A stretch of DNA of 64,000 bases. Origin: Nitrososphaeria archaeon. GTDB taxonomy: Archaea > Thermoproteota > Nitrososphaeria > Nitrososphaerales > JAAOZN01. The stretch spans positions 76,353 to 140,352 of the forward strand of contig JARVJZ010000006.1 in the NCBI GenBank assembly GCA_029775855.1, read 5' to 3'. Shown here piece by piece: positions 48,561 to 53,381 of the stretch. The notes under the pieces are model-generated. The model was not told the DNA's origin and did not search any database. It saw only the letters and a program-made list of their open reading frames with translations. Made by a program: the position numbers and the translations under genes. The stretch's first letter is position 1. Every line of letters starts with the position of its first letter.

Positions 48561-51092
48561 ATGGTTTCTAATGATTCTGATGTAAAGATATGCTATGTTA
48601 GCGGCGGGTTATGTGGTCATTCACGCTCCGGACCTCCTATGGAGGTTCATGTTAAGGATGGTAAGATCATTAGGGTGCTGCCCTTCCGAGTACCGGATGA
48701 AGTTAGACTCTATAAGATCAAGACGAGCAAAGGCGAGTTCACAAGACCCAGGAGAACTGTGCCAGCAGCATTTATGCTCGCTCACAAAAAGAGAGTGGAT
48801 TCGCCGAATAGATTAAAGTATCCTTTGAAGAGAGTGGATTGGAGCCCTGAAAATAGGAACCCTCAGAATAGGGGTAAGAGTGGATATGTTAGGATAAGCT
48901 GGGATGAAGCTATAGAAATAATCGTTAACGAGATCAAAAGGATAAAGGAGGTTTACGGCACAACCGAAGCGGTTTTGGTGCAAGCTGATGGGCATGGTCA
49001 ATCAGGGCTGCTGCACACATTCCATTGTTACGGCCACTATCTATTCGACAAGCTAGGAGGCTACACCTCACAAGTGAGGAACCCAGACAGCTGGGAAGGC
49101 TACTACTGGGGCGCAAAGCATGTATGGGGCTTCGATGCTCAAGTAGGTGAGCCGATTCAAGACGCGATCTTTGATGACATCTTAGAGAATTGTGAGATGC
49201 TGATATTCAGCGGCTGCGACCCTGAAACTACGCCAGCAGGCTTCGCTGGGCAGATAGGCACAATAATGTGCAGATGGATAAAACAGGCTGGAATAAAGAT
49301 CGTTGGTATATCGCCTGACTTAAATTACGCTGAAGCCGTGCACGCTGATAAATGGATACCCATTAAACCCAACACAGACGCAGCCTTATACTTGGCGATA
49401 GCATACACTTGGATCAAAGAGGACACATACGACAAGAAGTTTGTGCAGACACACTGCATCGGCTTCGAAGAATTCAAGAAGTATGTTTTAGGTGAAGAAG
49501 ATGGTGTTCCAAAGACACCAGAGTGGGCTGAGAGAATCTGTGGAGTGCCTGTTGAGACGATAAAGGCGCTTGCAAGAGCTTGGGCTAAGAAGAGAACATC
49601 CCTAGCAGTATTCTTCGGAGGACCTAAGATAAGGGGGCCTTATTGTAGTGAGGTTGCGAGGATAGAAGCGATAGTCTTATCTATGCAAGGACTTGGTAAG
49701 CCGGGTAGGCAATTCTTTAGATTTTGGTATAGGCTTGGCTTAGGCTGTAAGAAGCTTTCGCCTATACCTAGATATCCTGAGGTGGATGCTGAGGGGACTC
49801 CTCCGAACTTTGCTGAACCTTATGTATATATGCCTCCAACCAGCAGATCTTTCGTTATTAAAACGCTGGTGCCAGAAGCTATTCTTAATCCTCCTGTTAG
49901 TTGGTATTGTGCCGGCTCTATTATTTGCCCTCGTGAAGATCAGTTCACCAAATACACCTTCCCACCTTCAAAAGATCATCCTGGTATACATATGATTTGG
50001 AACGAGAATGCTTGCTGGACTGCTTGCTGGAGCAACGGCTATAAGATGATTGAGGCTTTAAGGAGCGAGAAGATAGATTTTGTAGTCGGTATACATCCCT
50101 GGTTGGAGAATGATCTGCTGTATGCTGACCTTATACTTCCAGCCCAGACCATATTTGAGCATGATGACATAGTTCCAGTGAATCATACAGATATTGTAGG
50201 TTTGGTTTATCAAGATAAGTGCATAGAGCCTGTTGGTGAATCTAAGAGCGACTATGAGATACACCGCCTTATAGCTGAGAAACTTGGTATCGGCGATGCG
50301 TTTCCACCGCCTGAGGAGGCGTTAAAGAAAGCCTATGAGAAGACATTGGCAGCTAAGAAGATGAGTTGGGAGGAGTTCAAGAAGAAGAAGGTTGTGATCT
50401 ACGACTGCCCAACTCCAGAGGAGTGGGAAGAAATTAAGAGGAAGTATAATGTTAAGCCTGGGTTGACTTGGTTCTATGAAATGCCTGAGGGTAAGGGTTT
50501 GGAGACACCAACTGGGAAACTTGAATTCTACTCTACGGGTCTTGCCGAGCACTTTCCAGACGATAAAGAAAGACCACCTTTACCACGCTATTTGCCTCAT
50601 GGTGAAGCACATCAAGAGAGCTTAAGTCATCTTAGGGCTGAGAAGTACCCTCTGCTTCTTATGTCTAACCATCCAAGGTGGAGGCTTCACTCTCAAGGCG
50701 ATGATATATCTTGGACAAGAGAGATACCTACCTGCAAAGTTAAAGGGTCTGATGGCTACCTCTATGAGCCTCTTTGGATTCACCCTATAGATGCTGAGAA
50801 AAGGGGTATAAAGAGCGGAGATGTAGTTATGATATTTAACGAGCGCGGCGTGGTTCTTGGAGGCGCATATGTGACTGAGAGGATAATGCCTGGCACGGTA
50901 TACATGGATCACGGTGCTAACCATGATCCAATAGAAGATAAAGTAGATAGAGGTGGATGCATAAATCTGATAGCGCCACCGCCTCACGAGAAGAGAATTG
51001 CGGGGATGGAGGTTAGGGTTCCAGAGATGTGCGCAAGCGGCTATTTGGTTGAAGTTCAAAAGTTGGATGAAGATTATCTGGTAGGTGAGTAA
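48561..51092 (+). CDS. DMSO-reductase-superfamily molybdopterin enzyme, large subunit, pyrogallol-hydroxytransferase-like; no N-terminal FeS motif, no Tat leader
   Basis: 843 aa. [72 protein letters not shown], C-terminal RGGCINLI. Confidence 0.75.
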   Translation: [843 protein letters not shown]

Positions 51093-51924: not shown

Positions 51925-53381
51925 CCATCTATAGTGGGATAGGTTTGTCTTTCCTATTTAGGAGAAAGACAGTAAGCACAGCTCTGAAGGTTTATCCGCC
52001 TAACTTTCAGGTGGAGTCTGGTAGGAGTGTGACATTAAAGGCTCATCTGAATCCTGAGAAGGCGCCTGTGGAGCGTGTTGAGTGGCGTTTAGAGGGTTTA
52101 GGTATACTTTCTGAATCAAAGGGTCCTTCCACTGTGTATACTGCGCCTAATGTAGAGCAGGAGACTAAAGTTAGGGTTGTAGCGTCTTTCCCTAAGATGA
52201 GTGAATACTTAGAGAGCTCATCTTATGCTGAGGGTGTGATCTTACCTTCTGGCTTGGCTGCTAAGTCTTCTACATTTCTTACAATATCTCCTATAAGTTT
52301 TTCGATAAATGCAGGTGAAAACATTGATTTAACAGCTGTTTTGACAGACATGCAAGGAAATCTCTTAGGCAGTAAAGAGATCGTGTGGTTCATACAACCT
52401 CAACTAGGCAAATTAACACCAACATCAAACAACACAGCAGTATACACCGCACCTAAAGTAGATGTTGAAAACCAAATCTTAATCAAAGCAGTCTTTCAAG
52501 GCGATGAGCAGCACCTACCTTGTGAAGGTGTCTCAATAGGCTTAGTGACGCCACCTACACTTAACGACGAATACATACTCAGCTTTAGTAGGGCAGAGGT
52601 ATCAAACCTTAAGATCGATGGTGGAGCTGAGGTTGATGGTGTAAGGGTTGTTAGGATCAGTGTTGACTTGCTTGAAATATCTGATATGAGGATAAGTAGA
52701 GTGAATCTATCCTCGCAAAGCGGAGTTCTACAGAAGGTTGAGATATACGCAACACGCCTCACAGCGCGCATACCAGATTCAGACAAGGGGTTAGATGTTA
52801 AAGGCGAAGATGATATACATCTTAACGCTTCTGAAGCCAGCTTAGATAACGGTGTAATCTACTTTGTGAAGATGAGTTGTCTAAGTGGGGAATTAACTCA
52901 ACCTGAAGTTTTAGGGCGGTATGCTGGTGGAGATGAGCCATACCTACCTATATTACTTACGACATCAAACATAACTATGGATAGGGGCTTTTCAGTTACA
53001 GGACCAGAGACATATGGCATGTTGGAGAATAAAGCTACTAAGATACTCTGCGGGAGAATCTCTGCATCAAACTTCTTCTTAAAATGCCCTAGCAGATACA
53101 GCTTAGATAGAGAGGGAAATAATCACGAGTTTGTTGAAAAGTGGGCTCTAAACGCTTCATCAGCAGCAATAGAGGATGCTGAGATATATGCAATATACTT
53201 CAAGGTAAGAGCCCTATTGGTATGGAGAGTTAAGGCTACTGGAGAAGAGTATATCCCAAGCATAATACCAGAAGGCCTCCACAGAGGAGAAAAAGCGCCG
53301 ATAAACGAGGCGGATGTGGACATAATCTACCTCAAAGCCACTAAACTAAAGGTCAATAACGCATCATTCACTTTAAAGTAG
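51921..53381 (+). CDS. Uncharacterised protein: two Ig-like repeats followed by an unassigned ~280-aa domain
   Basis: 486 aa. Its TTG start shares TTGA with the stop of the preceding gene. Two ~70-aa repeats each carry a (T/A)VYTAPxV motif. No catalytic motif recognised. Confidence 0.6.
   Translation: MTIYSGIGLSFLFRRKTVSTALKVYPPNFQVESGRSVTLKAHLNPEKAPVERVEWRLEGLGILSESKGPSTVYTAPNVEQETKVRVVASFPKMSEYLESSSYAEGVILPSGLAAKSSTFLTISPISFSINAGENIDLTAVLTDMQGNLLGSKEIVWFIQPQLGKLTPTSNNTAVYTAPKVDVENQILIKAVFQGDEQHLPCEGVSIGLVTPPTLNDEYILSFSRAEVSNLKIDGGAEVDGVRVVRISVDLLEISDMRISRVNLSSQSGVLQKVEIYATRLTARIPDSDKGLDVKGEDDIHLNASEASLDNGVIYFVKMSCLSGELTQPEVLGRYAGGDEPYLPILLTTSNITMDRGFSVTGPETYGMLENKATKILCGRISASNFFLKCPSRYSLDREGNNHEFVEKWALNASSAAIEDAEIYAIYFKVRALLVWRVKATGEEYIPSIIPEGLHRGEKAPINEADVDIIYLKATKLKVNNASFTLK

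Follow-up and report, generated by a model that had tools for sequence, protein, structure and literature searches.

A conserved third gene beside a transhydroxylase-like molybdoenzyme pair in an uncultured archaeon, predicted to encode a docking or accessory subunit

A 64,000-nucleotide (nt) stretch of a Nitrososphaerales genome (GenBank assembly GCA_029775855.1, contig JARVJZ010000006.1, positions 76,353–140,352), referred to here as the window, carries between positions 48561 and 53381 what is best explained as a compact three-gene operon of this uncultured hot-spring archaeon. The first two genes encode the catalytic (alpha) and iron-sulfur (FeS; beta) subunits of an enzyme related to the pyrogallol-phloroglucinol transhydroxylase (TH) of Pelobacter, and the third encodes a protein without a recognizable family, gamma. 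We put at roughly 60% the probability that gamma is a docking or accessory subunit of alpha-beta that derives from an exported, membrane-tethered ancestor and is cytoplasmic here. The evidence comes from the genes that surround gamma in close and distant relatives, from selection on gamma and from the pairing of export signals with membrane anchors.

RESULTS

Gamma stays with alpha and beta in close relatives and is under purifying selection

A word-indexed search returned ten gamma clusters with 59–100% identity and lengths of 475–486 amino acids, all annotated as hypothetical. A preliminary description of the window, made from the sequence alone, had called for a check of whether the third gene remains syntenic with alpha and beta; in the relatives, the adjacency held. 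The order alpha-beta-gamma is kept in every close locus recovered (L001–L006), and the flanking genes differ: a UbiD decarboxylase lies upstream in L004, SdhAB lies directly downstream in L001, and a xanthine-dehydrogenase-like gene follows gamma in L005 and in the window.

Gamma is under purifying selection. In comparisons with L001 and L005, the ratio of nonsynonymous to synonymous substitution rates (Ka/Ks) was 0.17–0.18 for gamma, 0.04 for alpha and approximately 0.06 for beta, although these ratios are rough because synonymous sites are near saturation. Gamma evolves 3–4 times faster than its two neighbors. Within gamma, constraint is uneven: the proportion of nonsynonymous differences from L001 is 0.13 in the C-terminal domain (C-domain) versus 0.25 in the part made of immunoglobulin (Ig)-like repeats, and the last ~60 residues are almost invariant.

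Distant gammas adjoin transhydroxylase-like pairs in rearranged gene orders

An exhaustive profile search added ~30 further 50%-identity clusters whose members cover the gamma C-domain. Their contexts were obtained from 12 single-protein look-ups representing six independent lineages; the contigs of L090, L091 and L098 were too short to be informative. Wherever the flanking DNA sufficed, the distant gammas (25–40% identity) are found no more than a few genes away from an alpha/beta pair, in which most alphas carry the AhtL-like_1st domain and beta carries CarboxypepD_reg. Gene orders vary among these loci (Table 1). Because the association survives both rearrangement and divergence to 25–40% identity, it is strong evidence for a functional link between gamma and transhydroxylase-like alpha/beta.

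The distant gammas differ in predicted topology. P0011 (480 amino acids) lacks an anchor, like the gamma of the window. Most others, of ~420–820 amino acids, consist of a positively charged stretch, a hydrophobic helix (hydropathy 2.2–3.5), one to five Ig-like repeats and the C-domain, and in P0019 and P0027 gamma is fused behind a NapH-like polytopic 4Fe-4S membrane protein. The NapG and NapH matches at these loci fall below the NCBIfam cut-offs. All four loci with an anchored gamma encode an alpha with a twin-arginine translocation (Tat) motif: SRRDFLK in L086, SRRDFLK in L092, TRRTFVK in L093 and TRREFLQ in L096. Alpha is Tat-less in both clades with an anchor-less gamma, namely, the window clade and L087. 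With this pairing, alpha and gamma are always predicted to share one side of the membrane. The density of N-glycosylation sequons did not separate exported from cytoplasmic forms of gamma.

Many Tat-less archaeal alphas keep an N-terminal segment of the form "...PLKEAS.EE..K" or "LLRRL.PEEA..L" (L008, L011, L013, L015, L018–L022, L024, L027, L028, L031, L033, L035, L036, L051 and L055). This segment is homologous to the stretch just past the signal peptide of the exported alphas and resembles the remnant of a Tat leader that has been lost. In a neighbor-joining tree of alpha rooted on TH, the Tat forms are basal. Together, the vestigial segment and the basal Tat forms suggest that export is ancestral in this group of enzymes.

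The exported systems have further components. Their loci, all in metagenome-assembled genomes of Thermoproteota (L092:1583–13152; L096:1–22325; L093:9313–18973; L086:1328–8328), also encode a B12-binding radical-SAM protein (TIGR04190-like) or a radical-SAM/SPASM protein, NarJ-like chaperones and a C-terminally anchored surface protein. A soluble protein of ~190–210 amino acids without a Pfam or NCBIfam match occurs in them in five copies with 28–71% mutual identity (L092:10728–11351; L096:2917–3534, 12481–13056 and 20519–21154; L093:9313–9921); it adjoins alpha/beta, gamma or the radical-SAM gene and has no homologue in the window. L087 encodes, besides a full-length gamma, a stand-alone C-domain paralogue of 273 amino acids without Ig repeats (L087:3079–3900, minus strand; hidden Markov model [HMM] E 7e-32) upstream of alpha.

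Alpha keeps the catalytic core of transhydroxylase and has an altered substrate pocket

The best match of alpha in the PDB is 4v4c_A, the large subunit of pyrogallol hydroxytransferase (E 4e-138 over residues 20–816), followed by dimethyl sulfoxide (DMSO) reductase (E 6.5e-70). Pfam recognizes Molybdopterin, Molydop_binding and, marginally (27.9 bits against a cut-off of 27), AhtL-like_1st. The preliminary assignment of alpha and beta to transhydroxylase rather than to DMSO, nitrate or formate reductases is upheld by these searches, in which 4v4c_A and 4v4c_B were best by wide margins and AhtL-like_1st and CarboxypepD_reg were found. The peptides on which that assignment had drawn do align to the large subunit of transhydroxylase: VKDGKIIR is identical, and NPDSWEG, AIAYTW.KED.YDK and GFEE..YVLG also align. 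Inspection of the N terminus bore out that alpha has neither the CxxCxxxC motif of the N-terminal FeS cluster (FS0) nor a twin-arginine (RR) motif. Membership of alpha and beta in the transhydroxylase branch is well supported by these sequence comparisons.

Matches of alpha to NCBIfam families all lie far under the cut-offs (dmsA_ynfE, 336 versus 778; bisC_fam, 332 versus 1018; TorA, 264–274 versus 909–1465). The name "TMAO reductase" (trimethylamine N-oxide reductase), which the Joint Genome Institute (JGI) gives to close homologues of alpha, is unsupported because the scores against DmsA, BisC, TorA and related families are far below the curated cut-offs.

The active site was compared in an alignment of 85 alphas with TH, to which the window alpha is 39% identical. 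A check of the metal-ligand serine and the substrate-binding residues against the published structure had been proposed, and its two halves came out differently. The ligand serine and the Asp/His/Tyr core are conserved: window H145, D176, S177, W178, E179 and Y405 correspond to TH H144, D174, S175, W176, E177 and Y404, and these residues are kept in 60–74 of 74 related alphas. The predicted metal ligand is Ser177 (codon 49089–49091). The substrate positions are not kept, with Y152 changed to T, R153 to F and W354 to G and the loop that bears Y560 deleted; the same changes and the loss of the loop are found in nearly all of the related alpha clade. Y152, R153, W354 and Y560 of TH are reported to line the pocket for substrate and co-substrate (Messerschmidt et al., 2004).

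One further residue, Cys824 (approximately 51030–51032, in ...PEMCASGY...), occurs in six of seven gamma-linked alphas, from four of five independent lineages; in the 74 alphas that have no gamma next to them, the column holds N, V or A, a distribution that may be due to chance.

A scan at one genome per species returned 202 relatives of alpha, and the loci described here are the best 80. These 80 alphas share 48–65% identity with that of the window, except for the close locus L006 at 93%. Their hosts are Bathyarchaeia, Nezhaarchaeota, Conexivisphaera, Thermoplasmataceae and many Alphaproteobacteria and Burkholderiales, and beta almost always lies directly downstream. With the Rhodocyclales-type alpha of L043 as the seed, a search gave at least 2835 clusters at E ≤ 1e-100; all have generic names, and none is named as a resorcinol hydroxylase. 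The window alpha thus belongs to a very large, uncharacterized sister group of the solved enzyme.

Beta has four complete iron-sulfur cluster motifs

Beta is also best matched in the PDB by the solved enzyme (4v4c_B, the small subunit; E 9e-56 over residues 8–274), and Fer4_11 (4e-24) and CarboxypepD_reg (6e-12) exceed their Pfam cut-offs, the latter corresponding to a C-terminal beta-sandwich at residues ~195–276. All 16 canonical cluster cysteines are present, making four complete [4Fe-4S] motifs, and they also occur in 96–100% of 76 related betas. Of these cysteines, C80, C100, C103 and C106 are replaced in the small subunit of TH by G, A, K and L, in agreement with the three [4Fe-4S] clusters known for that protein. 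Beta had previously been said to have the same layout as the small subunit of TH: this holds for the ferredoxin core and the C-terminal beta domain, but the cluster count differs, four versus three.

In the beta of one exported system (L093:17337–18185), the four cysteines missing from the Pelobacter enzyme are likewise absent, with A, S, Q and L in their place. Loss of the fourth cluster has therefore probably occurred at least twice in this family.

Gamma combines two Ig-like domains with a C-terminal domain without a structural match

Gamma begins with a conserved MSFLF[KR][KR]K motif (51945–51968) and has no signal peptide and no transmembrane (TM) helix; the maximum 19-residue hydropathy in its first 70 residues is 0.16. 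The two Ig-like repeats that had been noticed in the third open reading frame (ORF) were recovered as units of ~90 residues that match each other by BLASTP (E 9e-11, 25% identity), and AlphaFold models both as Ig-like sandwiches. Foldseek searches with the full-length model gave only generic tandem Ig or cadherin matches. Domain 2 matches Pfam Big_3_5 with an E value of 3.7e-4 and 21.5 bits against a gathering cut-off of 35.5, and relatives of gamma give profile matches to Big_3_5, Big_1 and PKD.

The C-domain is the family-defining and most conserved part of gamma, with the motifs GG.EPY.P.I and Y.LDR. The first full-length model was poor in this region; the C-domain was remodeled alone with a deeper alignment of 35 sequences, which gave a predicted local distance difference test (pLDDT) score of 94 and a predicted template modeling (pTM) score of 0.89. 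Foldseek found no match to this model in the PDB (best E 3e-3, TM-score 0.11) or in BFVD, a sequence search of the PDB found no relative, and no Pfam or NCBIfam family was found for the C-domain in gamma or in 15 relatives. The strand-rich C-terminal sequence that had resisted assignment by eye therefore also resists it in searches of Pfam, PDB and BFVD.

The only residue types invariant across the wider gamma family are Y, G, E, P and L, and no Cys/His motif is conserved family-wide. Because no Cys or His is conserved across the family, it is unlikely that gamma carries a redox cofactor. A metal- or cluster-binding role was considered and rejected, as the Cys and His residues that are invariant in the close clade are not kept in P0011 or in the wider family. 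A Tat-like reading of the FRRK sequence at the N terminus was likewise rejected, because most homologues carry KRK instead and a hydrophobic h-region is missing downstream.

Gene starts and expression signals

Three plus-strand ORFs were confirmed at 48561–51092 (843 amino acids, ATG), 51085–51924 (GTG) and 51921–53381 (TTG), and on reading the sequence these coordinates agree with the boundaries reported earlier, as do the TAA stop codon of alpha at 51090–51092 and the TTGA at 51921–51924. The start codons call for revision. Beta most likely begins at GTG 51094, one base past the alpha stop, rather than at GTG 51085, because a Shine-Dalgarno-like AGGTGA lies upstream and homologues, which open with MGKV..., use the equivalent codon; in homologous loci, GGAGG/GGTGA-like purine-rich motifs sit at the equivalent position. 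Gamma most likely starts at TTG 51945 (MSFLFRRK..., 478 amino acids), 20 nt past the beta stop, and not at the TTGA overlap, because every homologue begins at the equivalent codon, as ATG, GTG or TTG. In the homologous loci, (G/A)TGAT(A/G)G sits 4–9 nt before the gamma start codon. The NCBI annotation includes both the 486- and the 478-amino-acid versions of gamma. The coupling of translation through a TTGA start/stop overlap, as proposed in the preliminary description, is probably not used, as the likely real start lies 20 nt downstream; the spacers are nevertheless tight, at 1 nt between alpha and beta and 20 nt between beta and gamma.

Across 48400–53600, no run of five or more T residues was found except for one within gamma at 52298. 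A scan for consensus promoters and terminators, which used bacterial-type consensus sequences and was not made for archaea, found no site at the gene junctions, and its overall counts were at chance level. The putative promoter box upstream of alpha overlaps the stop codon of the preceding ThiDN gene. In the window, L001 and L006, the start of alpha is preceded at 33–37 nt by a AAAGTTAA[TA]A box, and L005 has a TTTAATA box at a similar distance. Because the box is kept in L001 and L006 despite differing upstream genes, the sequence suggests that the three-gene unit has its own archaeal promoter. An Rfam scan of the window returned no match. Two antisense ORFs, at 50622–51110 (minus strand, 162 amino acids) within alpha/beta and 52496–52786 (minus strand, 96 amino acids) within gamma, are most likely shadow ORFs, without evidence of being genes.

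Table 1. Features of the three-gene unit, in window coordinates, and gene orders at loci encoding distant gammas
Feature	Position	Strand	Basis or remarks
Putative promoter box AAAGTTAATA (transcription factor B recognition element [BRE]/TATA-like)	48517–48526	+	35 nt upstream of alpha ATG
Alpha, 843 amino acids, transhydroxylase-family bis(molybdopterin guanine dinucleotide) (bis-MGD) molybdo/tungsto-enzyme	48561–51092	+	PDB, Pfam, alignment
Shine-Dalgarno-like AGGTGA	51083–51088	+	Within alpha 3' end, 5 nt ahead of beta start; sequence reading
Beta, 276-amino-acid electron-transfer subunit	51094–51924	+	PDB, Pfam, Cys alignment; start by homologues
Beta-gamma spacer	51925–51944	+	20 nt; Shine-Dalgarno-like GTGGGATAGG motif; no T-run, promoter-like or terminator-like site
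Gamma, 478 amino acids	51945–53381	+	Homologues, synteny, selection
Gamma Ig-like domain 1, residues ~13–100	51981–52244	+	AlphaFold beta-sandwich, block pLDDT mostly 79–93
Gamma Ig-like domain 2, residues ~110–202	52272–52550	+	AlphaFold beta-sandwich; Pfam Big_3_5 sub-threshold
Gamma C-domain, residues ~203–478 (276 amino acids)	52551–53378	+	All-beta, strands of 20–30 residues
L087			Alpha-beta-gamma-NarJ-like
L086			Gamma, radical-SAM/SPASM, alpha, beta
L093/L094			Gamma; B12-radical-SAM and NarJ-like on opposite strand; alpha-beta
L092			NapG-like, NapH::gamma fusion, beta and alpha convergent, second anchored gamma
L096/L097			NapG-like, NapH::gamma fusion, anchored gamma, B12-radical-SAM, alpha, beta; second alpha-beta pair nearby
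L095			Gamma divergent from split/frameshifted alpha

Neighboring genes

Upstream of the operon lies a thiamine salvage cluster (44821–48524) composed of a ThiN-domain protein (44821–45909, minus strand), an NCS1-type permease (45840–47147) and a ThiD-ThiN fusion (47154–48524). Downstream, a convergent gene for a 782-amino-acid molybdenum subunit of the xanthine dehydrogenase family (53368–55716, minus strand) overlaps the 3' end of gamma by 14 nt, an arrangement shared with L005. Its best NCBIfam match is the alpha subunit of 4-hydroxybenzoyl-CoA reductase (514 bits versus a cut-off of 995), and no adjacent genes for FeS or FAD subunits were seen. It is followed by SdhA (55839–57587) and, directly after that, by an SdhB-like gene (57560–59107, plus strand; Fer2_3 and Fer4) with a C-terminal extension of ~270 amino acids that contains several hydrophobic segments, an unusual fusion of an iron-sulfur subunit with a membrane part; L001 has a similar gene of 496 amino acids. 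A tungsten-type aldehyde:ferredoxin oxidoreductase (AFOR_N, AFOR_C) is encoded 7 kb downstream at 60298–62172 (plus strand), so three pterin-cofactor enzymes (transhydroxylase-like, xanthine-dehydrogenase-like and aldehyde:ferredoxin oxidoreductase) lie within 14 kb.

In L004, a gene for a UbiD-family decarboxylase (L004:2490–3953; phenylphosphate-carboxylase/VdcC-like, below the equivalog cut-offs) lies directly upstream of alpha-beta-gamma, which hints at a decarboxylation step that feeds a phenolic substrate to the enzyme. Together with the 4-hydroxybenzoyl-CoA reductase-like gene of the window, it weakly hints at phenolic metabolism.

DISCUSSION

A model for the three-gene unit

We propose that alpha-beta is a cytoplasmic member of the pyrogallol-transhydroxylase/resorcinol-hydroxylase branch of the DMSO-reductase superfamily. 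Alpha would hold a Ser-ligated bis-MGD molybdenum (or tungsten) center with an Asp-His-Tyr core and act on a hydroxylated aromatic or similar substrate, which probably differs from the substrate of the Pelobacter enzyme. Beta would be a complete four-cluster FeS wire, and because of this and the altered pocket, the sequences suggest net electron transfer (as in a hydroxylase or dehydroxylase) over redox-neutral hydroxyl transfer. Gamma would be a dedicated accessory protein without a cofactor, most likely a subunit with a structural or docking role. Thermoproteota lack an outer membrane that could keep a soluble enzyme at the cell. In the ancestral form of gamma, the N-terminal helix may have served as an anchor and the Ig repeats as a stalk, with the C-domain holding a Tat-exported alpha-beta at the cell surface, where a NapGH-like module, encoded alongside gamma or fused to it, would link the FeS wire of beta to the quinone pool for electron exchange. 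In the lineage of the window, alpha would have lost its Tat signal and gamma its anchor, leaving a minimal system of three cytoplasmic proteins in which gamma, retained under purifying selection, presumably still binds alpha-beta. In this model, the binding of gamma to alpha-beta, its part as a tether, the evolutionary direction, the substrate and the type of reaction are all inferred from sequence.

A broader formulation is more tentative, and we regard it as possible rather than probable. Here, gamma would represent a new family with a fold not seen before that serves as the docking and anchoring subunit of an unrecognized class of transhydroxylase-like archaeal molybdoenzymes. Ancestrally, these would be Tat-exported, held at the membrane by an Ig-domain stalk and connected through NapGH-like modules with the quinone pool, with the B12-radical-SAM protein and the ~200-amino-acid protein as further partners; the window would encode a cytoplasmic derivative with three subunits.

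Several observations weigh against gamma as a docking subunit with an exported ancestry. No gamma occurs within ~6 kb of 80 other alpha/beta loci with 48–65% identity, many of them archaeal; when all ORFs of 95 loci were searched with an HMM of the C-domain, only the gamma loci described above were matched, and none of L007–L085. Downstream of beta, these loci have heterogeneous genes, often on the opposite strand. A third gene is therefore not general to archaeal alpha/beta homologues, and alpha-beta is not universally dependent on an adjacent gamma. The gamma-linked alphas are not monophyletic in the tree, and the absence of gamma from the other loci seems to reflect either repeated loss or a location elsewhere in the genome. 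The search for signature columns of gamma-linked subunits gave none in beta and only Cys824 in alpha. Because the window clade and L087 share the MSFLF N terminus, loss of the Tat signal and of the TM anchor may have been a single event; their covariation agrees with the model but is weak statistically, and the alpha tree behind the inferred direction of change was built by neighbor joining only, with TH as the root. A long Ig stalk is also odd for a cytoplasmic subunit.

Alternative explanations

Gamma could be a functional partner of alpha-beta without being a stable subunit, either capturing and presenting substrate, with the Ig stalk and beta domain binding polymeric or particulate polyphenols or humic material, or acting as a transient assembly or stability factor. 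We think this unlikely, while taking it to be the most serious competitor. In fold searches, the tandem Ig-like domains come close to adhesins, invasins and cadherins, the relatives of gamma are surface-exposed and anchored, gamma evolves 3–4 times faster than alpha and beta, and many alpha/beta pairs do without it, all of which would suit such a role. The absence of an export signal excludes extracellular polymer binding in the window clade, however, NarJ/TorD-type chaperones are encoded separately in L087 and L093, and the C-domain shows the strong conservation that a fixed protein interface would have. At the other extreme, gamma might be an unrelated neighbor, a degenerate surface or adhesin-like gene that happens to lie downstream of beta. 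It has no recognizable family, Ig-like repeats are typical of surface proteins, and the TTGA overlap is probably not the real start; but synteny persists amid changing flanks in gammas with as little as 59% identity, distant relatives show the association again in rearranged orders and gene fusions, gamma is under purifying selection and lacks a signal peptide or anchor in the window clade, and the 20-nt spacer contains no terminator. This reading is largely refuted by the neighborhood data, and we consider it very improbable.

A different objection concerns the enzyme itself. Alpha-beta could be a true pyrogallol-phloroglucinol transhydroxylase of a gallate or tannin pathway, with gamma peripheral to catalysis, a reading to which we assign a somewhat smaller chance than to a gamma that is a partner but not a subunit. 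TH is the best PDB match for both subunits, the catalytic core is kept, and homologues are routinely annotated as transhydroxylases (PMC3971608; bioRxiv 10.64898/2026.07.17.739263). The aromatic-acid decarboxylase directly upstream of alpha in L004 is of the UbiD family, as are gallate decarboxylases (pathway: PMC10470551). Against this, identity to TH is only 39%, three pocket residues are replaced (R153 by F, Y152 by T and W354 by G) and the loop with Y560 is missing, beta has retained a fourth FeS cluster lost from TH, and alpha sits in the large uncharacterized sister clade of at least 2835 generically named clusters. No phloroglucinol-pathway gene was noticed in the 64-kb window, where ten neighboring ORFs were scanned against Pfam and the full length was searched by tblastn with seven accessory proteins from related loci. 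A docking or accessory gamma beside an enzyme with a probably different substrate remains our preferred reading.

Novelty and significance

Transhydroxylase homologues have been annotated by homology only in Chloroflexi and SAR116 (PMC3971608; bioRxiv 10.64898/2026.07.17.739263). No third component, no Tat-exported transhydroxylase-like enzyme and no gamma family was described in the literature searched, consistent with the preliminary view that a third component would be new. With the enzyme core, a known family gains a new member; what appears to be undescribed is gamma, the unmatched fold of gamma and its exported, tethered relatives.

Transhydroxylase-like pairs are widely annotated as "pyrogallol hydroxytransferase" in metagenomes, where they are taken to indicate polyphenol degradation. 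The present data point to a very large sister clade in archaea and proteobacteria, with a substrate pocket and FeS content unlike those of the solved enzyme, and to a dedicated third protein, without a family or a fold match in the PDB or BFVD, in part of that clade. They also point to exported, membrane-tethered versions linked to quinol-dehydrogenase-like modules in Thermoproteota. If the proposed role of gamma is true, it would be a new type of subunit for the DMSO-reductase superfamily and would point to a surface-located, respiration-linked transformation of phenolics in archaea; the broader class, if real, would extend this to extracellular respiratory hydroxylation or dehydroxylation of phenolics by Thermoproteota. 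The compact cytoplasmic three-gene version is a tractable target for expression and structural work.

Comparison with known systems

Domains 1 and 2 of gamma resemble the tandem Ig-like folds of Big/PKD surface proteins such as invasin, FdeC and LigA, and gamma gives weak Big_3_5, Big_1 and PKD matches. It differs from these proteins in its sub-gathering Pfam scores, in the lack of a signal peptide in the window clade and in a C-domain without counterpart among them.

Membrane-tethered, Tat-exported enzymes of the DMSO-reductase family that work with NapGH-type quinol dehydrogenase modules can be compared with the relatives of gamma, which occur with a Tat alpha, a NapG-like ferredoxin, a NapH-like protein and a NapH::gamma fusion. 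The general logic, a molybdenum enzyme on the periplasmic side wired to the quinone pool, is held in common. The catalytic pair, however, is transhydroxylase-like and not NapA, and instead of NapC, NrfD or a cytochrome, a protein with a single helix, an Ig stalk and a novel domain provides the anchor. In the window itself, a tblastn search of all 64 kb with seven accessory proteins of related loci found no gene of the radical-SAM, NarJ-like, ~200-amino-acid or NapGH-like kind.

Resorcinol hydroxylase (RhLS) is a membrane-associated, net-oxidizing hydroxylase that passes electrons on. Net oxidation would fit the complete four-cluster beta. The enzyme, from Azoarcus anaerobius, belongs to the same Ser-coordinated, FS0-less branch (RhL/PgtL family) and is the only other characterized member of that branch, which is placed in the cytoplasm in a review (PMC10100899). 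No third subunit of the gamma kind was reported for RhLS in the literature searched.

The Pelobacter TH is the nearest relative with a structure, being the best PDB match of both subunits over their full length, and both enzymes are cytoplasmic. To our knowledge, it is also the only enzyme of the transhydroxylase branch whose structure has been solved, with two subunits that form an alpha-beta heterodimer. In both systems, alpha has neither a Tat signal nor the N-terminal FeS cluster and keeps the Ser ligand together with the Asp, His, Trp, Glu and Tyr404 equivalents, and beta joins a ferredoxin core to a C-terminal CarboxypepD_reg-like beta domain. The archaeal enzyme differs in its 39% alpha identity, its pocket changes, the missing Y560 loop and its four rather than three cluster motifs, and, whereas the solved enzyme has two chain types in the PDB, it is accompanied by a conserved third gene.

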